64,000 nucleotides of DNA from Dehalococcoidia bacterium (GTDB lineage: Bacteria; Chloroflexota; Dehalococcoidia; Dehalococcoidales; UBA1222), in assembly GCA_003597995.1 (NCBI GenBank), contig QZJY01000016.1:751-64750 (forward strand), written 5' to 3'. Position numbers and translations under genes: made by a program. The notes below the pieces were generated by a model. The model was not told where the DNA came from. It did no database searches and saw only the letters and a program-made list of their open reading frames with translations. The stretch's first letter is position 1; every line of letters starts with the position of its first letter. Shown here piece by piece: positions 4,105 through 50,760 of the stretch.

Positions 4105-4290
4105 TTCCGCAACTATTTTTTCTCTCCCTCGACGGGAGAGACGTAAGTGAGGGTGAGAGTTATGGAATACCCCTCACCCATTCGGCTTTGCTCAGGGCAG
4201 GCTCTTAATCGTCTCCCGCAAGGGGCGAGGAGACCTCCCTTCCAGATGCTTCGGCCAGCCTCTCTGGCCTCCAGCATGGACAATTGGGAA
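4105..4290. repeat. cluster of GC-rich hairpin modules, including a 38-nt unit at 4242-4279
   Basis: Contains tctctccc-tcgac-gggagaga and gtgaggg..ccctcac. The unit 4242-4279 is the exact reverse complement of 42186-42223. Confidence 0.8.
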
Positions 4291-6064: not shown

Positions 6065-6235
6065 ACGAAACCCTGGGGAAGGGACAAATGGGAAAATCCC
6101 TTTCGGCTTGCCTAAGGCCAGCAAAGGACGGAGAATGTGCCTCCCTACCTCGGGGTCCTCACGTCGTTCCGCCACGGCGGAACTTCCTCAGGACGACACC
6201 CTGGAAAATCCCTCGATTAGGGCAAAATGAAAGAA
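6065..6235. repeat. GC-rich hairpin or degenerate repeat cluster
   Basis: Contains ccctacctcgg and gttccgccacggcggaac modules shared with other intergenic sites. Confidence 0.5.
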
Positions 6236-6256
6236 GGCGGGTGTTAATTCCCGCCC
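6224..6256 (-). terminator. intrinsic terminator downstream of the GcvH-like gene
   Basis: On the minus strand: ggcggg-aattaaca-cccgcc followed by ttctttcatttt. Confidence 0.6.
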
Positions 6257-6291
6257 TCCGTTCGGATATGCTCGTAAATACCTTAAAAGTT

Positions 6292-7062
6292 TTATTTCTT
6301 GGCGGCGACGAGATCCCGGTATTGTAGCGCGGTCAGCAGAGTCTTGAGTTCATCGGGTTTACCGAGTTGAATGGCTATCACCCAGCCGGTGTTATAAACA
6401 TCAATAACTAAGGGCTGGATTACCTGACCCTGGAGCATCCATCCTTTTAAAAATTGATTAACTTGAACAATTGTCCCACTGACAGGGCTCGGAGGTCGGC
6501 GCTGATTTTAAACCCTTCGATAGTCACGAAACTATCCCCCTGGGCCAGAACGCTACCGACTACAGCGTCCGATATCTTGAATGGTTCACCCAGTATCTTT
6601 TCTAGTATGGCAGAAATTCCGACCACCACTATGTTGGCTGATACAGACTTGGCCCATAAGTGATCCTGGGAATACATACGGTCGGTGGCGATTTCACATT
6701 CGGTATTGGTACTTTGATAAGCGGGGGTATTGCAGTGGGATGAACGTAAGAAAAACCGGTCGTGGCGGGAGTACTCGTAGTCGGTATGGTTGAGCTTGGG
6801 GTGGGTGTAGCCGATGTCGGCGTGGTGGTGGTTGAAGCTGGAGTGGTTGAAGTCGGGGTAGTAGTCGTGGAGGTATTAACATTAGTGGTTGTGTACGTGG
6901 TGGTACCGCTGGGAGATTTGCAAGCTGACGGGAGCGAAATAGATGCTATAGCCGCCCCACCCATCGCGAGGCTTACCCGTTTTAAAAACTGCCGTCTGGA
7001 AAACTTTGTAACATGAAAGTTGGCCCTGTTTTCTCGATTCCTTTTTCCTTCCCTTCCTGCAT
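6292..7062 (-). pseudogene. Tat-signal lipoprotein with Thr/Pro-rich linker and C-terminal GcvH-like (lipoyl-type) domain, disrupted by three 1-nt frameshifts
   Basis: AAGGAGG sits 7 nt upstream of ATG 7062. The remaining parts are SRRQFLK..LPSAC (Tat signal plus lipobox), a T/P linker, and a GcvH-like YSQDHLWAK..EGFKISADLRA|PVSGTIVQVN..NTGWV. The three parts lie in three frames joined at T4, A3 and C3 runs. Confidence 0.7.
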
Positions 7063-7144
7063 CTATCCACCCTCCTTAATCGAGTAAAGGCATATCTCCA
7101 ACGAGTTCATCCGACTCCCACCCCTTCAAAGAAGCCTCATTTGA

Positions 7145-7879
7145 TTACCAGCCGGTCAATGTCCCCGTTTTAATCTGCGATAGCAGCCAGAAACCGACGA
7201 GTATAAGTAAAATACCGGATATATAACGAAGCGGTTTATCCATTTTTTCCATAAACTTGGTGGCTCGTCCCATGCCCAGGCCGAGCATGACCGCCACCAG
7301 CGGGGCTACAAAGCCGATAGCGAATACGATTAATATGATAGTTCCTTCCAGCACTTTACCGCGTAGAGCGGCCAACCCCAGAACTATAGGAAGCTGTAAC
7401 GGAGAGCAGGCGGCGGCGCATCCCGCGGTTGCCAGACCCACGGTGGCTCCAAGAAGCAGCGCACCCAACGTACCGCTGGGAAGTTTTTCTGTAGCTAGCT
7501 TAAAGGTGGGAAAGCGCATCGGCAGCCAGTCGAGCGCCGAAAGTCCGAGAATTAAGCAGGCGAAACCGAGAACTTTTTTAACATAAAAACCGAGCCTGCC
7601 AGTGGATGCCATAATGTCTCCGCCGGCGAATGCCATAACGGCTCCGAGCGCACCCAAAATGACTATCGAAGAGAGCGCAAATGCCGCGGCGGCGGTAAGC
7701 AACTGACCGCGATTCCCGCCCTTACTGGATCCCGTATAACCGAGGATTACCAGCATGGCGGGAAGCCCGCCGCAGCCTGCCGTGGTTGCGGCCGAAGACA
7801 GCCCGAAAAGGAAGGAGGCGACCAGCACCGTGAAACCGAACGTCTGACCCTTAAGGATATCCTGAATCCATGCATCCAT
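7145..7879 (-). CDS. CcdA/DsbD-like polytopic membrane protein (putative thiol-disulfide transporter)
   Basis: 244 aa with about 6 TM segments. A Cys-Pro-containing TM motif occurs in each half (AGCGGLPAM and AACSPLQLP), as in the DsbD superfamily. Confidence 0.5.
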   Translation of the reverse strand: MDAWIQDILKGQTFGFTVLVASFLFGLSSAATTAGCGGLPAMLVILGYTGSSKGGNRGQLLTAAAAFALSSIVILGALGAVMAFAGGDIMASTGRLGFYVKKVLGFACLILGLSALDWLPMRFPTFKLATEKLPSGTLGALLLGATVGLATAGCAAACSPLQLPIVLGLAALRGKVLEGTIILIVFAIGFVAPLVAVMLGLGMGRATKFMEKMDKPLRYISGILLILVGFWLLSQIKTGTLTGW

Positions 7880-7894
7880 ATTCTTTTCCGTCCT

Positions 7895-8437
7895 TCAGCG
7901 CAAGAATTTGCGGTCGAGATACTGGTTGTAAATAGTGTCCGCCGTGATATTTGATCGCAGAGTTACCGGAAATGCACTCGCAGCCTGGGTAAACAGCTTC
8001 ATAGTCAGGGTAGGATAGGTCAGGGAATTGTTGGCCGGCAAGATGAATACGCCCACATAAATGCGGTCAGTAGAACGTATTTTATTGGCTGCTTGTACCG
8101 TGAGGTTTGTAATGGAGGTATTCAAAGCAGCATCGGGGCAGGGAGTAATGACCATCACAAAGTCGTTGTTTGAGCCATATGCCTCTGATATTGAGGCGAT
8201 GTTGAGGGGCGTTTCCCCTGTATAAGTGGGCGGCGGATGCGGAATTATTGATGAAGTTTGGTGCGCAGCTTCATACCTTATAGAGGAATTCACGGTCAGT
8301 CCGATCGCCACCAGGCCAACGACGATCAACATTACCGTTTTCCACCTGGCCCAGGGAACGACCGGTTTTTGCTCTGAGGGGACTCCGCCCGTGTCGGGAG
8401 TGCTGTTCTCGCTCATTTTGCTGCTCCTTCCGTCCAT
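7895..8437 (-). CDS. membrane-anchored protein of unknown function (single N-terminal TM, extracytoplasmic domain)
   Basis: 180-aa ORF lying 15 nt upstream of the CcdA-like gene. It has a single Cys in ITPCPDA and no recognisable family. Confidence 0.5.
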   Translation of the reverse strand: MDGRSSKMSENSTPDTGGVPSEQKPVVPWARWKTVMLIVVGLVAIGLTVNSSIRYEAAHQTSSIIPHPPPTYTGETPLNIASISEAYGSNNDFVMVITPCPDAALNTSITNLTVQAANKIRSTDRIYVGVFILPANNSLTYPTLTMKLFTQAASAFPVTLRSNITADTIYNQYLDRKFLR

Positions 8438-8498
8438 GTTTATTTATACTGTATTCCGCAGACTGACGGCTGGCACTCTGTTTCAAGAAAATGGCGGT

Positions 8499-8849
8499 CT
8501 AGCAAGACACGCAGCCGGGTCCGACGCGCTTGGATTGCTTCAAGCGCATTACGTCTTTTTTAGCTGTCTCGTTGGCTTGCATCTCCTTTTTTACCGCATC
8601 GAGCAGATTGGCATAAAATCCGTTGGCACCTGTATCGCGGAGCGAATAAAGAGTATACAGGCCGTCGGTGCGCATATTGAGAAACCCGGCGTCATCTAGA
8701 ATCTTTAAGTTGCGCGAAGCGCGGGTCTGCGAAATTTCGAGAGCCTGTATCACCTCGCAGACGCAGCATTCCTGGACCATGAGTAAGTTCAGTATACGGA
8801 GCCGGGTCTCGTCGGATAGAGCCTGGGCTGCGCGTGTCAGTTGTTTCAT
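8499..8849 (-). CDS. arsR: ArsR/SmtB family metalloregulator
   Basis: 116 aa with LSDETRLRILNLL and a winged HTH. The ECCVCE motif sits at the classical As(III)-binding position. Confidence 0.85.
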   Translation of the reverse strand: MKQLTRAAQALSDETRLRILNLLMVQECCVCEVIQALEISQTRASRNLKILDDAGFLNMRTDGLYTLYSLRDTGANGFYANLLDAVKKEMQANETAKKDVMRLKQSKRVGPGCVSC

Positions 8850-8881: not shown

Positions 8882-9196
8882 TCAAGCCTCGAGCGCCTGC
8901 TTCAGTTCTTCGTACTTCATGTATTTTTGCTGGGAGATGATATTACCGTCGATGCTGATAATGGGTAAGATGCCAACGCCTTTGGCCTTTATCATCTGCA
9001 AGATGTCCAGGTTCTGGCGGTATACGTCCAGGTTGTGCGACATATTGGCGCGCTGAATTTGCATTTCCGGGTAGTCTTTTTTCAGTTTCTTGAGCGTGTC
9101 GGCGAATTCTACCAGAATCTTGTCCGGTTCAACCCCGCAGACGCCCGAATCGCAGCACATAGTCCCTTCAAAAATCGCTAATTTCTTGTGTTTCAT
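8882..9196 (-). CDS. arsD: ArsD-like arsenic metallochaperone / repressor family protein
   Basis: 104 aa. N-terminal FEGTMCCDSGVCG matches the ArsD Cys12-Cys13-Cys18 site. No arsA or arsB is present in the window. Confidence 0.7.
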   Translation of the reverse strand: MKHKKLAIFEGTMCCDSGVCGVEPDKILVEFADTLKKLKKDYPEMQIQRANMSHNLDVYRQNLDILQMIKAKGVGILPIISIDGNIISQQKYMKYEELKQALEA

Positions 9197-9496
9197 TCTA
9201 CTATATCCCCTATTTGGAAAATTTTGTTATTCACCTATATGCGCATTAACGCCTGCAATATAGTAAATCAATGGACAGAATAAAGTCAATAGGTTGTCAG
9301 ATACAGCGTAAAATATTATTTGGGATAATATCATGAAAGACGGAAGGTAGGTATAGTGAAGGGTTGGTGGAGTCTTATTCCGGATGTTTGAGCCTGTTAA
9401 GCTTGGATTGACTTCCGGGGCTCTGTCGCTCCACCATCGATTGGGAAAAAGCACGGCTCTGACATGCTCCCGCTTTTTTAGCACCTTGGCATGAGG

Positions 9497-9560: not shown

Positions 9561-9791
9561 TTACTTGTTGCAGCAATCCTCGGAAACCGGGGTGGCGGTA
9601 GTTTGGGCGGCTGCTCCTCCAGAACAGCAACCGGCCGCTACGGGAGCTGTTGTTGTGCAGCAGGGAGGGGTGGCATCAAGCTGTGTGGTTCCTGAACGGA
9701 AGAGTCCTCCGGCGAGGACAGGCGCGGCAAATAACCCGATGCCTGCCACAATGGCAACAGCCACGATAACAGCCACCAGTATTTTTTTCAT
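9561..9791 (-). CDS. small exported or membrane-anchored peptide with three vicinal Cys-Cys pairs
   Basis: 76 aa with a hydrophobic N-terminus (MKKILVAVIVAVAIVAGIGLF), then PPCC..GCC..DCCNK. AGGGAGG lies upstream of the ATG and a terminator follows. Confidence 0.6.
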   Translation of the reverse strand: MKKILVAVIVAVAIVAGIGLFAAPVLAGGLFRSGTTQLDATPPCCTTTAPVAAGCCSGGAAAQTTATPVSEDCCNK

Positions 9792-19197: not shown

Positions 19198-19552
19198 TGG
19201 GTGACAAGGAGTTGCTTTTGAACTCATCGAAAGTACAGGCCGACGTGAGAATATCGGACATCGGCAAGCCGATTAGTAGAGTCGGACGCCGATTAATACC
19301 GTGTTTTTTATCCCATGTAAAATCTGGCTGTGCACATTTCCCCGCCCCGCCAGATTCTTCGGCCATCCAATATGGCCTCCAGAATGGACAGACCGTGCGA
19401 TATTCTATGCTGGAAGCCGCGATGGGCGGCTGAAGCATCTGGAGGGGCATGGCATTCTCGCCAATAGAATCATGAAGAAGGGTGACTACTTGGCGGAGAT
19501 TGCCGTGTCGTCCGATTGAATCGGGTCCCCTCGCAATGGCAGGTATATATGC

Positions 19553-29642: not shown

Positions 29643-31091
29643 TTATAGTTTAAGTCCCTTTGCTACAGCCTGGCCTAACGCCTTGTCGGCCTTGGTCAGG
29701 TTGTCAATCATGCGTTTCTGTATTGGTTTATTAATGTTCATCAAGTCAGCGATGAGATTGTCTACCATGTGCTCCTGGTCCATTTTGTTCAGAGAGCGGT
29801 ATCTTTCTCCCGCCTGTGCGAAATCATTGGTTAAACTTATCTTCTGGCGAACTGCTGCTCCTTCGACTTGATATACGCGCGGTGTACCCTCTTCACGGGA
29901 CTCCCGGGGCATGCCGCCGGCCAGGCTATTGGGTTCGTAGGCGACGGGGCCGCTGAACTGGCCGGTCTGCATCGCGCCGTCCCTCTGATTATTGTTAACC
30001 GGCACTACAGGGCGGTTCACGCCAAGCTGGAGGTAGTTCGCTCCGAGCCGATGGCGCTGAGTATCGGCATACGAGAATGTCCGGCCTTGCAAAAGTTTGT
30101 CCGCGGAAAAGTCAATTCCGGGAACGATGCTGGCGGGGCAGAAAGCCGCCTGTTCCACTTCGACGAAAAAATTATCCGGATTACGGTTTAACACCATTTT
30201 GCCGACCGGCATCAGCGGGAATTTGTTTTCAGGCCAGGTCTTGGTAGGGTCCAGAGGGTCAAAATCCTGTTTTAACTCGTCGGCTATATCCATCAGCTGT
30301 ACATTAAGCTCGTACTCGACCTCTTCCCCCCTGGCGATGGCGTCGTGAAGGTCGCGCACAAGGTAATCGGGGTCGGTACCAGCCATGCGGGTGGCTTCGT
30401 GGCGGTCCAGGTTTTGCACGCCCAGACTGGGTTTCCAGTGGTATTTCACGTACACTGCTTTCCCGGCGGCATTCACCCATACATAGGTATTGACGCCAAA
30501 GCCTTCTTGCATGCGGTAACTTTTCGGCGTACCGCGGTCGGAAAAAAGCCAGGTTATCATATGGGTTGATTCCGGGGTCAGAGATATGAAGTCCCAGAAA
30601 CTGTTATGGGCGGAAGAAGCGGACGGCATGTTGGTATCCGGTTCCCCCTTGAAGGCGTGAACCATATCCGGAAACTTGATGGCGTCCCGAATGAAAAATA
30701 CCGGGAGGTTATTCCCGACCAGATCGTAGTTGCCGTCCTCGGTATAGAATTTCACGGCAAAGCCGCGGGGGTCCCGGACGGTATCCGCCGAGCCCCGGCC
30801 TCCGGTGACGGTGGAGAAGCGCACGAACACCGGTGTCTTTTTCACGGGATCCTGAAGAAATTTCGCCTTAGTGTAAGGACCCATGCCCTTGTATACCTGG
30901 AAGTAGCCGTGTGCCCCTGCCCCTTTGGCATGGACAACCCTCTCGGGGATACGTTCACGGTCGAAGTGAGCCATCTTCTCGATGAACTGGACATCCTGCA
31001 GCAGCACCGGCCCGCGTTGTCCGGCGGTTAAAGAGTTTTGATTGTCGGTAACCGGTACGCCTTGATTTGTTGTAAGATTTTTGTTTTCCAT
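29643..31091 (-). CDS. monofunctional heme catalase
   Basis: 482 aa with FDRERIPERVVHAKGAGAHG and RLGANY. The size fits small-subunit catalases. Confidence 0.95.
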   Translation of the reverse strand: MENKNLTTNQGVPVTDNQNSLTAGQRGPVLLQDVQFIEKMAHFDRERIPERVVHAKGAGAHGYFQVYKGMGPYTKAKFLQDPVKKTPVFVRFSTVTGGRGSADTVRDPRGFAVKFYTEDGNYDLVGNNLPVFFIRDAIKFPDMVHAFKGEPDTNMPSASSAHNSFWDFISLTPESTHMITWLFSDRGTPKSYRMQEGFGVNTYVWVNAAGKAVYVKYHWKPSLGVQNLDRHEATRMAGTDPDYLVRDLHDAIARGEEVEYELNVQLMDIADELKQDFDPLDPTKTWPENKFPLMPVGKMVLNRNPDNFFVEVEQAAFCPASIVPGIDFSADKLLQGRTFSYADTQRHRLGANYLQLGVNRPVVPVNNNQRDGAMQTGQFSGPVAYEPNSLAGGMPRESREEGTPRVYQVEGAAVRQKISLTNDFAQAGERYRSLNKMDQEHMVDNLIADLMNINKPIQKRMIDNLTKADKALGQAVAKGLKL

Positions 31092-42181: not shown

Positions 42182-42185
42182 CTTT

Positions 42186-42415
42186 CCATGCTGGAGGCCA
42201 GAGAGGCTGGCCGAAGCATCTGGTGGAGCAGGGAGAATCCCTCTCTTATCTCCCCCTTCGGCTTCTCTCAGGGCAAGCTCTTTCCCAAGGGTAGAGATTT
42301 ACAATTCAGCAAAAGTTTGATACACCTCATTTGGTCCCTCTTTTGTCTCCTTTTCTAAGGGAAGAAGGAGACAGCACTCTCCCCCTTTAAAAAAGGGGGA
42401 TTAAGGGGGATTTTT
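42186..42415. repeat. GC-rich repeat cluster including the 38-nt unit (42186-42223) and the left flank repeat of the DUF559 cassette (42378-42415)
   Basis: 42186-42223 equals the reverse complement of 4242-4279 (38/38). 42378-42415 recurs at 42973-43010. Confidence 0.8.
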
Positions 42416-45098: not shown

Positions 45099-45560
45099 TT
45101 ATTTAGTGGCTGTAGCCTTACTGAGTGCTTGTTTGATCAAGCTAACCGCCTCAGAGGTTTGCTTCAACACAAATATGTCTGTAAACCGCAGAACCGAATA
45201 GCCTAGTGAAATCAATGATTGGGTATTGTTTAAGTCTCTAGCAACGTTTCTATTTATTTTTTCTTGCCAGTACTGGGACATTTGTTGAAGTCGCTCTTCT
45301 GATAGCTTTTGACCATGCCAGAAACGCCCGTCAACGAACACTGCCACTTTCGATTTCTTGAAAACAATATCCGGCTTTCCAGGTAAATTAAAAACGTATT
45401 TTCTATAACGCAATCCCTCAGCCCATAACGCCCTACGCAGCAGTAATTCAGGAGCTGTGTCAATTGACTTGATACGAGACATTATCCAGCTTCGTTGTTC
45501 TTTGCTGGCATCTTTTGTTATTTCAGTTTTATTTGCAGTTTTGTGTAGTCTTTTTCGCAT
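45099..45560 (-). CDS. vsr: very short patch repair endonuclease
   Basis: 153 aa with RSWIMSRIKSIDTAPE and FVDGRFWHG. AT-rich, and overlaps the upstream gene by 43 nt. Confidence 0.85.
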   Translation of the reverse strand: MRKRLHKTANKTEITKDASKEQRSWIMSRIKSIDTAPELLLRRALWAEGLRYRKYVFNLPGKPDIVFKKSKVAVFVDGRFWHGQKLSEERLQQMSQYWQEKINRNVARDLNNTQSLISLGYSVLRFTDIFVLKQTSEAVSLIKQALSKATATK

Positions 45561-46459
45561 TTTTTCACTATCTGGTTATATGTATCAAATAGCTCCATTA
45601 ACTTAACCTCACGCATATTGGGGATAAATTGGCTTAATTCATAAATGTTCATTGCTATAAATTGTTGAATTTCAAAAAATTCAACCCTGTTCTCTATTCC
45701 CGCCGATTTGCTTAGGTATTGACCTATACTAACGCCAGCTGATGTTGTGACTACTAGTGGTTTGAGATTAGAATTAAGATTGGTTTTACATTTTGCAATC
45801 AGTTTCTCTGTTGGGGTCATCGTAACATGAATCGCTACATTACCGATAAGAAAGTCACCTGGCCTTTTTGAAGCCTCATCAGCGACAGAAAATCCAAATG
45901 TTTCTGGCGGTAATTTGGGCAAAGCTAATGTTAATTTCGCCCCCACCAAGTGTTGCATCATAGCACCTTGAATCATGAACCCAGCCGATTCTCGTTGCCT
46001 CTTTTCAGCTTGTTCCAAGACATCATTTACTATATTTGCTATTGACTTAGATGAGTCGAGGTGTAATTTAAAAGGTTTTGCAGCAAGATAGGCCTTTACT
46101 TGTGTAACCCACCATTTCTCAATATCCTTAAGGTCTTTGGCGCTCATCGGTTTATTTTTATTTAGTTGGTTGAGCCACTTAACATAGGTCTCCATTAAAC
46201 CCAAACTGCCCCTGTTGGTTCTTCCACCTTCGGATGAAAATGATTGGGTTATGCCGTAATCATTTAGAATATTCTGAATAGCTGGGCCGCTTAAACCTTT
46301 CACCTGCCCATGTTTTGCGGTTTTAAACTCGCTAGCTGTCAAAGGGAAAGTTTTCCCCATTGCAACACGAGTTATCACCAAAACTACTGAAAGAGACCCT
46401 TTGCTCGTTATTGTTGTATTTTGTTTAAACTTTTGAAGTGATTCCTGAATAGTAGGCAT
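45518..46459 (-). CDS. putative type II restriction endonuclease (possibly DUF4928-like) partnered with the adjacent C5-methyltransferase
   Basis: 313-aa AT-rich ORF overlapping both dcm (35 nt) and vsr (43 nt). The call rests on position only; no clear catalytic motif was seen. Confidence 0.4.
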   Translation of the reverse strand: MPTIQESLQKFKQNTTITSKGSLSVVLVITRVAMGKTFPLTASEFKTAKHGQVKGLSGPAIQNILNDYGITQSFSSEGGRTNRGSLGLMETYVKWLNQLNKNKPMSAKDLKDIEKWWVTQVKAYLAAKPFKLHLDSSKSIANIVNDVLEQAEKRQRESAGFMIQGAMMQHLVGAKLTLALPKLPPETFGFSVADEASKRPGDFLIGNVAIHVTMTPTEKLIAKCKTNLNSNLKPLVVTTSAGVSIGQYLSKSAGIENRVEFFEIQQFIAMNIYELSQFIPNMREVKLMELFDTYNQIVKKCEKDYTKLQIKLK

Positions 46460-47540
46460 ATGCTCTCCTCGCTAATGGAAGAAGTAACTCTTTGGCAATA
46501 AAGCGTGTGACCGGCAACGCTACGGCATCGCCCATAGCATTATAGCCATCATTAAAAGTACCAGGGATTTTATATGAATCAGGGACCCCCATTAATCTAG
46601 CCGCTTCTCTCACTGAAAGCAGCCTAACGTCAAGTCTGTTATTCCTTGCAATGATGATGAATTGGCGACTGCTTCCACCATTGGCTGTCCTCAAGCAACC
46701 CGAAATGTCATCCGCTCTAATCTCTAAAACCTGTTTATTATTGCGGATACGTCTATATCCGGGGAAAATATCCACTCCGGACAAAATCCCCGTGCGTATT
46801 TTGTCTTTATGGGTTCCGGGAATTAAGGAGATAATATCATCCGCTTTTTCGCTGGAATATATAGGAATGTCATAATCGATAAAATCAGATAACCTAGATG
46901 TTCGACGAGGTGGCTTTGGCATTTTCCACCAAATAACGTCTTTGAGCCCATCAAGTGCCCGAGTGACAGTGTTCGGGTGAAGCCAATTGGGTGAAACATC
47001 TGTTAAGCAATCTATTTCGATATCCTTTTGGACGCCAATAACAAAAATCCGCTTCCTCGATTGCGGTAGCCAGTTCAACGCGTCTAGTAAAATTGGGCCA
47101 ACGCGATAGCCTCTTGAGACTAGAGCCTGATGCAGGGCAACGTAATTTTTACCCTTTTCAGCTGATGTTAAACCAGACACATTTTCAGCAACTACAATCG
47201 GCGGTCGAACAGGCATGCGGTCCATTGCGTCGAGCCAAACCCAGAATAGCCCGCTCCGGCTGGCATTTATTCCCTCCTGCTTGCCAGCCACTGACAGGTC
47301 TTGACAAGGAAAACTTGCCCATGAAACAATTGCGAATGGAACCTGCGAGTCTAAATGAGTTTGAAGCGGGCCTAAATGAAAGACTGACTTATTCTGATTG
47401 CTATTGTAGATATTGCCTTTCTGCTCGGATATATCATTCGCCCAAACCGTGTAAAAGTATGGTTTGACGCCTTCAGTAACAAGGCCGCTGCCAGCAAAAA
47501 AATCCAAAAAAGGAAAAGTTTCATCAACGATGACAGTCAA
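46425..47540 (-). CDS. dcm: DNA (cytosine-5)-methyltransferase
   Basis: 371 aa with a TTG start and motifs I FAGSGL, IV PCQDLS, VI ENV, VIII QSRKR and X GDAV. Confidence 0.9.
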   Translation of the reverse strand: MTVIVDETFPFLDFFAGSGLVTEGVKPYFYTVWANDISEQKGNIYNSNQNKSVFHLGPLQTHLDSQVPFAIVSWASFPCQDLSVAGKQEGINASRSGLFWVWLDAMDRMPVRPPIVVAENVSGLTSAEKGKNYVALHQALVSRGYRVGPILLDALNWLPQSRKRIFVIGVQKDIEIDCLTDVSPNWLHPNTVTRALDGLKDVIWWKMPKPPRRTSRLSDFIDYDIPIYSSEKADDIISLIPGTHKDKIRTGILSGVDIFPGYRRIRNNKQVLEIRADDISGCLRTANGGSSRQFIIIARNNRLDVRLLSVREAARLMGVPDSYKIPGTFNDGYNAMGDAVALPVTRFIAKELLLPLARRAYAYYSGITSKV

Positions 47541-48699: not shown

Positions 48700-49260
48700 C
48701 TAGCGCGGTGTTTCCTCTCCCCTCCGTGGGAGAGGATTGAAGGTGAGGGGGTATTCACGAACTCTTACCTCACTGTTATCTCTCCTGCAAGGGGCGAGGT
48801 GATTTAAAAAGGGCGACCGGCCGGTCGCCCCTACGCCAACCATCTTGTACTGGGCACAGCATGCTGTGCCCCTACCTCGGCAAACATGACAAACACCCCT
48901 TGACCTCCCCCTCTCCCCATGTGCTATCCTGTTTCTCTATCTTCTGGTATCTTTTGCGCCGCCTTTAACAACCCGCCCTCCCGACGAATACGATTCAGGC
49001 ACAGGCGCCCAATTCGAATATGTCCATAACGGACCAAACGAAGCCCTTTTGGCAAAACGACTCCGTGCCTGCGCCGCGCCTGAACAACCTTGTTCGTCCC
49101 CTTGAAGAAGACCCCCAAAAAACGAAAACGAATCGGTGGGTATTGTAGCGGCAACCGGCCGGTTGCCACCACGACAGAAGAGAGAAGAAAGGTTGTCCCC
49201 TCACCCCTCCAGATGCTTCAGCCATCCTTTATGGCTTCCAGCATGACAACCCGGCCTCCA
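48700..49260. repeat. largest intergenic cluster of GC-rich hairpin modules (about 560 bp without a credible gene)
   Basis: Contains cctctcccc-tccgt-gggagagg, gggcgaccggccggtcgccc, gcggcaaccggccggttgcc, ggcacagcatgctgtgcc and a 38-nt-family unit at 49209-49246. Confidence 0.8.
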
Positions 49261-50644: not shown

Positions 50645-50760
50645 GTAATCCTGTCGTTCTGAGGAGTCCGCCGAGGCGGACGACGTGAGAACCACGAGGC
50701 GGGGGGGCTTCCCCTCCCTGAGATTCTTCGCTCGCTATGCTCTCTCAGAATGACAGACTG
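50645..50760. repeat. GC-rich hairpin modules
   Basis: Contains gtccgcc-gag-gcggac and cattctgagagagc-type words shared with other sites. Confidence 0.5.

Follow-up and report, generated by a model that had tools for sequence, protein, structure and literature searches.

As far as is known, protein-bound lipoate is a cofactor of the cytoplasm or of organelles, and dihydrolipoate is a classic high-affinity target of arsenite. Two H-protein paralogues that work outside glycine cleavage, LbpA of sHdr sulfur oxidation and GcvH-L of the SirTM/macrodomain oxidative-stress operon of Firmicutes, are encoded in dedicated operons together with their own lipoylation enzymes, and their dithiol is thought to be used for sulfur or redox chemistry; both are cytoplasmic, with neither a signal peptide nor a lipid anchor. 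Here, we describe a gcvH-like gene on the minus strand (7062 to 6292) of a 64,000-nucleotide stretch, hereafter called the window, of contig QZJY01000016.1 from a Dehalococcoidia bacterium. As written, the gene is broken by three one-base deficits. When mended, it encodes a predicted exported lipoprotein carrying a complete GcvH-like lipoyl domain. In full-text literature searches, no account was found of a GcvH-like protein that is exported or lipid-anchored, which agrees with what an earlier note on this DNA had supposed, and the family to which the gene belongs, together with its ars and lipoylation context, appears to be undescribed.

CcdA, thioredoxin and a redox-active disulfide protein were noted in ars operons by Castillo and Saier (2010; PMC2963123, section 3.9), who doubted an outward flow of electrons for want of an external partner and reported no lipoyl protein. 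ArsG is presented as a DsbD_TM-type efflux permease for trivalent aromatic arsenicals in the work of Chen, Zhang and Rosen (2019), as it is cited in PMC9144182. Like LbpA and GcvH-L, the protein of the window is a GcvH-like lipoyl protein recruited to a dedicated operon, but the hdr, dsrE, sirTM and macrodomain partners of those systems are absent here. The operon shares with the modules of PMC2963123 the combination of arsR, arsD (and arsA in some relatives) with genes for a CcdA/DsbD-like and a thioredoxin-fold protein; the thioredoxin-fold protein here, however, is membrane-anchored and has no CxxC motif.

The locus also resembles the CcdA-ResA/CcmG and DsbD relays, in that a small CcdA-type protein with conserved cysteines in transmembrane helices 1 and 4 (TM1 and TM4) is encoded alongside a membrane-anchored, extracytoplasmic thioredoxin-fold protein. 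It differs from them in the absence of cytochrome c maturation genes, in the CxxxC arrangement in TM4, in a borderline Pfam score, and in a thioredoxin-fold partner with at most one, non-invariant Cys; moreover, the presumed acceptor here is a lipoyl group and not a CxxC protein. Residues 19-234 of the CcdA-like protein align to positions 7-222 of the 225-position ArsG model, and the ars context is common to both, but with 34.8 bits against a cut-off of 200 the protein is not an ArsG equivalog, and arsE and arsF are absent.

The mended protein and its family

The gcvH-like gene is a real gene whose parts are spread over three frames (Table 1). In a three-frame translation, the ATG frame begins with MQEGKEK and meets a stop after 26 codons; the second frame then runs from NRENRANFHVTKFSRRQFLKRVSLAMGGAAIASISLPSACKSPSG through a Thr/Pro-rich stretch to TTGFSYVHPTAIPPLIKVP, the third reads NTECEIATDRMYSQDHLWAK...VTIEGFKISADL, and the first frame resumes with PSPVSGTIVQVN...NTGWVIAIQLGKPDELKTLLTALQYRDLVAAKK, ending at the stop codon TAA (6294-6292). 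As it stands, the gene yields no exported lipoyl protein: its frame is cut by three separate one-base deficits. The ribosome-binding site AAGGAGG and ATG start given in the earlier note were read directly, and the SRRQFLK motif, the LPSAC sequence, the Thr/Pro linker and the GcvH-like domain were all located in the order that it had described. The linker, put there at about 50 residues, measures about 53, and the lipobox-like Cys (codon 6922-6920) lies at a position that is invariant in the family alignment described below. The note had also given the gene its own terminator, and a terminator-like hairpin is indeed present; it is suggestive only, since such sites were no commoner in the scanned region than in shuffled sequences. 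Scans of the window for tRNAs and Rfam families gave a single tRNA-Ser in total and no match at this locus.

The mended translation matched Pfam GCV_H (PF01597) over positions 2-119 of the 122-position profile (E = 1.6e-16; 60.8 bits, cut-off 22.2), and TIGR01409 (TAT_signal_seq) with 20.6 bits (cut-off 16.7), the first of these being the profile that the earlier note had suggested for a search of the repaired reading frame. The likeness to GcvH extends over the whole domain, which begins at a Cys specific to the family (NTEC; Cys codon 6698-6696), and the Lys of IEGFK (codon 6509-6507), in the hairpin motif, aligns with the lipoyl Lys of the pea and E. coli H-proteins (1DXM and 3A7A) through the family profile. 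IEGFK falls opposite the vESVKATSD motif of 1DXM, in which the aligned residue is presumably Lys63, the site of lipoyl attachment. The completeness of the domain and the retention of its lipoyl Lys, both claimed earlier, are thereby borne out. From its sequence, the protein is predicted to be exported: a twin-arginine translocation (Tat) signal is followed by a lipobox-like Cys, a Thr/Pro linker and a complete GcvH-like domain that has kept the Lys.

The orthologues carry a precomputed PF01597 assignment. They are named "glycine cleavage system protein H" in public annotation and are in many cases called as fragments of 111-139 residues, both of which would suit an ordinary cytoplasmic GcvH with a non-coding or miscalled N-terminal part; this reading is very improbable, because the orthologues have conserved the N-terminal extension, in frame and with its Arg pair and Cys invariant, the equivalog models for GcvH are missed (TIGR00527, 53.1 against a cut-off of 115.85; NF002270, 74.4 against 117), no gcvT or gcvP was found among the genes identified in the window or beside the gcvH-like gene in 20 related loci, and the short gene calls are explained by an open reading frame (ORF) antisense to the linker. 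A canonical cytoplasmic GcvH was therefore rejected on account of the conserved in-frame signal peptide. The Tat signal, lipobox-like Cys and long tether, from which an extracytoplasmic location is predicted, set the protein apart from GcvH, as do the additional conserved Cys at the edge of the domain and the location in ars-type operons.

Intact orthologues were found in L003 (JGI; L003:6808-7590), L004 (an NCBI "uncultured Dehalococcoidales" metagenome-assembled genome (MAG); L004:5297-6082), L001 and L029, in each of which the whole protein, 220-261 residues long, is encoded in a single frame; in L028, the orthologue is uninterrupted over the part present in the contig. The intact orthologues share the Tat signal, the Cys, the linker and the domain with the mended protein of the window. 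Those of L003 and L004 lie beside ccdA-like genes, as the earlier note had asked to be checked, and a signal peptide is carried by L003, L004, L001, L029 and about 100 family representatives.

An initial word-indexed protein search returned six relatives, most of them fragments of 109-139 residues, and an exhaustive search was needed to see the family. When the intact orthologue P0001 was run with phmmer against 1.84 billion representatives, 51 representatives scored below 1e-30, and at least about 100 cluster representatives at 50% identity, 190-290 residues long, had the N-terminal extension. In an alignment of 40 sequences (A3), two Arg, the signal Cys, the Lys (K150; 40/40) and several Trp and Gly are invariant. 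The Arg pair is present in 107 of the 118 full-length representatives; in all but one of these 107, a Cys follows 16-36 residues later, preceded at position -1 by A, S or G in 105. Between this Cys and the DRxY motif of the domain lie 28-106 residues (median 73), of which 68% are S, T, P, A or G. In 95 of 103 members, the domain is immediately preceded by a Cys specific to the family, located no more than 12 residues upstream of the DRxY motif. Among solved structures, the best relatives of the family profile are true H-proteins (1DXM and 3A7A), and its lipoyl Lys aligns with theirs. The organisms named for members are MAGs of Dehalococcoidia or Dehalococcoidales, and a scan of genome contigs returned one genome only, an uncultured Dehalococcoidales MAG.

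Gene callers shorten members of the family (L003, L004, L028, L029 and L031; P0002-P0006) to 109-139 residues, so that the Tat signal is lost, and an antisense ORF is called in place of the N-terminal part (e.g., L003 6855-7148, minus strand). This shortening arises because the Thr/Pro linker gives rise to a long antisense ORF. The family is consequently hidden in current annotation, where its proteins are cut to 111-139 residues and named plain GcvH.

Other Tat proteins with similar signals and Thr/Ser/Pro tethers are encoded near gcvH-like genes (L004:6588-6947 and L010:3174-3929), one of them the [2Fe-2S] subunit of a molybdenum (Mo)-hydroxylase. The design, a Tat lipoprotein on a tether, may be widespread in these organisms.

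Position and origin of the three deficits

The sites of the breaks were fixed by DNA alignments of the window with the contigs of orthologues, which revealed exactly three one-column gaps, present in the window only. The earlier note was right in seeing three single-base deficits, but not in where it put them (T4 at 7003-7000, A3 at 6715-6713 and C3 at 6487-6485): breaks 2 and 3 lie a few bases from the A3 and C3 runs, and the true site of break 1 is about 40 nt from the T4 run. Mending at the T4, A3 and C3 runs does give a protein that still matches GCV_H, yet the orthologues place the sites elsewhere. The twin-arginine motif SRRQFLK stands, being recognized by TIGR01409, but not the T restored in the T4 run to obtain it.

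For break 1, the SRRQFLK frame extends upstream as NRENRANFHVTKF, to which NRENKANIRVTKF corresponds in orthologues; because this upstream continuation is conserved in the orthologues, the break must lie between 7062 and 7039. Over this piece, the non-ATG frame reads NRENRANFHVTKFSRRQFLK, for which the orthologues have MSEDEEKENRENKANIRVTKFSRRQFLK. At break 2, the window has GTA-CCAAT where the orthologues have GTnCCnnnT, encoding V-P-(G/N/D)-T-E-C. At break 3, CTC-CGAG in the window stands against CTTCCGAG in the closest relatives, which have CTTCCG at this point, encoding ADL-PSPVSG. Wetland contigs related to the window contain an extra base near breaks 1 and 3 (at 6492 in one).

We give an even chance to the reading that the deficits are a real, very recent inactivation of one copy in a family with duplication and decay, which makes it only marginally likelier than a local assembly error. 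Turnover of copies is seen at this locus: L011 has two tandem intact copies (7129-7944 and 8001-8771), and in L013, what is left of a second gcvH-like gene, a decayed and frame-shifted C-terminal piece (L013:8774-9200), separates arsD from the intact copy. Apart from the gcvH-like gene, the window is clean. Compared with L003, 13 of 13 flanking orthologues are intact, with single full-length matches, about 35 further genes have end-to-end Pfam profile coverage, and about 60 other genes over 64 kb are without any break. (A six-frame overlap scan for frameshifts proved too noisy, and the comparison with orthologues and Pfam profile coverage were used in its place.) Since the remainder of the window is clean, uniformly random error is excluded. 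The earlier note had argued from the contrast between three breaks and about 75 intact genes to a real pseudogene; the argument holds against uniformly random error, but not against a local assembly problem.

That the gene is intact in the organism, with 257 residues encoded, and that the assembly lost the three bases through errors in its consensus, such as unpolished long-read deletion errors in a strain-variable stretch of locally low coverage, we consider a serious contender that falls a little short of an even chance. Several observations favor it and weigh against inactivation. Each of the three changes removes one base from a short run, a pattern that long-read consensus error leaves as well. 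The mended protein, which contains no in-frame stop, cannot be told from intact orthologues in conservation or rate: at columns that do not vary among five relatives, it carries two unique changes, both conservative, where the intact orthologues carry 2-6, and its distances to outgroups equal those of the closest intact relative. Such a lack of acceleration is unexpected for a pseudogene old enough to have gathered three indels, although the test for relaxed selection has low power with a closest relative that is 81% identical. The gene is also far more variable between strains than its flanks (62-81% amino-acid identity, compared to 85-97%), and this local variability could lower the quality of a metagenome consensus, which drops in such places. 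Finally, searches of public runs and read mapping did not find source reads that would verify the deficits, the best run containing 11% of the sequence words; a look-up of the window's own neighbour protein was likewise without result, and the reads and contigs that could be mapped on the window were from relatives only, at roughly 85-99% identity.

A public contig, L027 (ENA ERZ25039554 contig_129295), from a close relative with 89% identity in the thioredoxin-fold protein, gives an example of long-read noise that breaks the gcvH-like gene and many others. The frameshifts in this contig affect dnaJ, dnaK, NAD kinase, fumarase, HIT and the gcvH-like gene, and reflect a noisy long-read assembly, not biology.

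Assembly error, on the other hand, has to account for an assembly that is clean overall. Under uniform error, three deficits within 550 nt and none elsewhere would have a probability of about (0.77/55)^2, or ~2e-4, so that a special local cause is needed. The runs involved are only 2-5 nt long, in contrast to the long homopolymers typical of polished long-read errors, and if the assembly was a short-read de Bruijn one, every k-mer exists in the reads and the deletions are real. The spectrum of homopolymer lengths was uninformative either way, being alike in the window, in short-read relatives and in the noisy L027. With no signal of relaxed selection and no reads found, the choice between real inactivation and artefact is therefore close to evenly balanced.

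Bridging of the breaks by programmed ribosomal frameshifting or transcriptional slippage, with a full-length protein being made, was considered and rejected as most improbable: the three deficits do sum to three, which returns the last piece to the ATG frame, and one break is near an A5 run, but three separate +1 events would be needed, known slippery or stimulatory motifs are missing from all of the sites, the orthologues are free of all three breaks, and efficient transcriptional slippage requires longer runs than these of 2-5 nt.

Whichever of these applies, the family is more interesting than the break, which in one copy matters little by itself.

The operon and its surroundings

The setting of the gene is best explained as a five-gene, ArsR-controlled operon on the minus strand, consisting of arsD, arsR and the genes for the thioredoxin-fold protein, the CcdA/DsbD-like protein and the gcvH-like protein, in that order. 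The gcvH-like gene, last in the operon, follows directly on the DsbD_TM-like gene (7879-7145), as the earlier note had observed. The ArsR protein scored 74.3 bits against NCBIfam NF033788 (cut-off 55). In an alignment of the window ArsD to that of R773 (3MWH), the MCCxxGVCG motif is conserved; we take its cysteines to be Cys12, Cys13 and Cys18 of R773 ArsD. None of arsA, arsB, acr3, arsC, lipB or lipA is present in the 64-kb window, where the only candidate permease of the ars operon is the DsbD_TM-like protein; lspA, for signal peptidase II, is encoded there.

The DsbD_TM-like protein matched PF02683 over positions 3-218 of 219, at a borderline 27.5 bits (cut-off 27.1). Cys36 and the Cys154-x3-Cys158 pair are invariant in seven homologues, and there is no usable sequence relative in the PDB. 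The thioredoxin-fold protein (173-180 residues, with an N-terminal membrane anchor) has no match in Pfam or NCBIfam; its 54 homologues come from Dehalococcoidia and Chloroflexi, and all named ones are "hypothetical". An AlphaFold model had a predicted local distance difference test (pLDDT) score of 80.7, and when this was compared to the PDB with Foldseek, ranks 1-5 were thioredoxin or protein disulfide isomerase (PDI) domains and thioredoxin folds dominated the rest (best E = 2.5e-4). The CxxC site is degenerate (TPCxD). A classical CxxC oxidoreductase was rejected for this neighbour: the fold is present, but the single Cys is not invariant.

Table 1. Features of the gcvH-like gene, its operon and the REP (repetitive extragenic palindromic)-like repeats (window coordinates).
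Feature	Position	Strand	Basis or remark
Ribosome-binding site AAGGAGG	7071..7077	-	Read directly; 8 nt before ATG 7062-7060
Start codon and first coding piece MQEGKEK	7039..7062	-	ATG 7062-7060; holds break 1
Break 1, one-base deficit	7062-7039; simplest in or beside A5 run 7046-7042	-	Frame comparison with orthologues
Twin-arginine signal peptide: SRRQFLK 7000-6980, hydrophobic stretch, lipobox-like LPSAC 6934-6920	6920..7000	-	TIGR01409
Thr/Pro/Ser-rich linker, ~53 residues	6761..6919	-	Translation
GcvH-like lipoyl domain, preceded by conserved segment TGFSYVHPTAIPPLIKVP (from 6760)	6292..6760	-	Pfam GCV_H
Break 2, one-base deficit	6710/6709 (6708..6712)	-	Between GTA 6712-6710 and CC 6709-6708
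Break 3, one-base deficit	6492/6491 (6491..6494)	-	One-column gap, window only
Intrinsic-terminator-like hairpin, 10 pairs (7 G-C), then T-rich tail	6232..6259	-	Hairpin scan
CcdA/DsbD_TM-like (ArsG-like) membrane protein, 244 residues	7145..7879	-	Pfam DsbD_TM
Membrane-anchored thioredoxin-like protein, predicted domain outward-facing	7895..8437, likely start 8416	-	Structure model
ArsR/SmtB metalloregulator, ECCVCE in helix 3, C-terminal CVSC	8499..8849	-	Pfam HTH_5
ArsD arsenite metallochaperone, MCCDSGVCG motif	8882..9196	-	NCBIfam equivalog NF033727, 96.4 bits against 90
Sigma-70-like promoter match upstream of arsD	9260..9289	-	9/12 positions; weak, not above chance in region
REP-like repeats	4235-4283, 19342-19390, 19404-19447, 42185-42223, 49204-49249, 56977-57025; also 6139-6198, 50652-50708		

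The synteny of arsD, arsR, the thioredoxin-fold gene and the DsbD_TM-like gene with the gcvH-like gene is kept in L003, L004, L011, L013, L023 and L027, and in L004, L011, L013 and L016 the gcvH-like gene is adjoined by lipB (TIGR00214), a gene for a FabG-like short-chain dehydrogenase/reductase (SDR) and lipA; the presence of lipB and lipA, for de novo lipoylation, is also a point of likeness to GcvH. This ars/lip neighbourhood holds for one clade of the family. The LipB and LipA proteins of the relatives have no signal peptides. In L032, a Dehalococcoidaceae MAG, the order is arsR, arsD, arsA, thioredoxin-fold, DsbD_TM-like, gcvH-like, so that the last three genes occupy the place of arsB in a classical arsRDAB operon. 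L031 (Chloroflexi RBG_16_48_7) has SBF-family transporter (PF01758), arsA, lipB, SDR, gcvH-like, arsD, arsR, thioredoxin-fold, DsbD_TM-like, lipB and radical SAM genes. In both L031 and L032, the module is kept at only about 50% identity of the thioredoxin-fold protein. The arsA gene is present in L013, where it is bona fide, and in L031 and L032; ArsD and ArsA score above the NCBIfam cut-offs.

Just upstream of arsD lies a 76-residue ORF (9561-9791, minus strand) that has a membrane helix at its N terminus and contains Cys-Cys pairs at three places (PPCC, GCCSGG and DCCNK). It has a terminator-like hairpin of its own (9527-9506) and no Pfam match, and is partly conserved in L003 (30 residues, 57%).

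Elsewhere in the window, hgcA (55640-56632, minus strand; 420.5 bits against NF040863, cut-off 275) has the NVWCAAGK motif and is accompanied by hgcB (55358-55627, minus strand; 109.1 bits against NF040864, cut-off 99). This mercury-methylation pair (55358-56632) makes the organism a candidate mercury methylator. Short intergenic repeats of about 45-60 nt, of two kinds and with internal dyad symmetry, are REP-like; one copy lies between the terminator of the gcvH-like gene and fumA, and a related wetland contig skips 6046-6273 of the window entirely. The genome looks like that of an anaerobic member of the Dehalococcoidales and encodes a full-length catalase (29643-31091, minus strand; Pfam Catalase 1-381 of 383, and Catalase-rel). 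A restriction-modification-like cluster (45099-47540, minus strand) comprises a C-5 cytosine DNA methylase (46425-47540), a DUF4928 protein (45518-46459) and, downstream, a small ORF (45099-45560) that by eye only resembles a Vsr-type mismatch endonuclease.

A possible link between lipoate and arsenic

For the intact relatives, a mechanism can be proposed in which the apo-domain would most likely be octanoylated and sulfurated in the cytoplasm by LipB and LipA of the same clusters, after which the folded domain would be exported through Tat and lipid-anchored at the Cys, for which the window encodes signal peptidase II. This would leave the lipoyl arm on the outside of the membrane, held by a flexible Thr/Ser/Pro tether of roughly 30-100 residues, where its dithiol/disulfide and the Cys at the domain edge would most likely work together with the CcdA-like and thioredoxin-fold proteins under the control of ArsR. 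The sequences show which parts the domain has, which residues are invariant and that the gene cluster is conserved, and from these we infer the order of events. The suggestion in the earlier note that Tat export suits a domain lipoylated in the cytoplasm is plausible, the lipB and lipA products in the same clusters of relatives being without signals.

As to function, we tentatively put first, at somewhat less than an even chance, a surface dithiol, kept reduced from the cytoplasm, that would serve to bind or strip As(III) or other thiophilic metalloids. Next in rank, and nearly as likely, is a more general role in thiol-redox chemistry outside the cytoplasm. The boldest option is an outward thiol relay for As(III), leading from ArsD/ArsA through the three membrane cysteines to the lipoyl protein. 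A new arsenic-responsive surface system, in which a Tat-exported, tethered lipoyl protein offers a three-thiol site for As(III) or trivalent organoarsenicals and has a CcdA-like partner, is possible but rather doubtful. The three thiols would be those of the dihydrolipoyl arm and one conserved Cys, and the CcdA-like protein, with its three conserved Cys, might either re-reduce the lipoyl group or pass As(III) outward from ArsD/ArsA. Such a thiol-to-thiol relay would be an outward-facing counterpart of MerP-MerT.

A surface role in arsenic handling, and the exported lipoprotein on which it depends, also have points against them. When compared with the pattern [LVI][ASTVI][GAS]C with which the signal peptide should close, the Leu of the lipobox is usually at -4 (LPSAC, LASGC, LTSAC) and not at the canonical -3. 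Other clades of the family sit in unrelated contexts, beside genes for Mo-hydroxylases or sulfur/selenium carriers. Furthermore, lipoylation, Tat export, lipidation and the arsenic link are all inferences drawn solely from the sequences and the neighbouring genes.

For the CcdA and thioredoxin genes that have been noted in ars operons since 2010, the exported GcvH-like protein is a candidate external partner, and the arsenic-responsive system, if true, would give these unexplained genes a function. The repeated occurrence of the gcvH-like genes within arsR-arsD(-arsA) clusters that also encode a CcdA-like protein points to a connection of lipoate with arsenic defence that can be tested. If the proposed export is true, protein-bound lipoate would for the first time be seen in use outside the cytoplasm, and a family with Tat signals, lipid-anchor motifs and its own LipB and LipA would move lipoyl chemistry outside the cell membrane.

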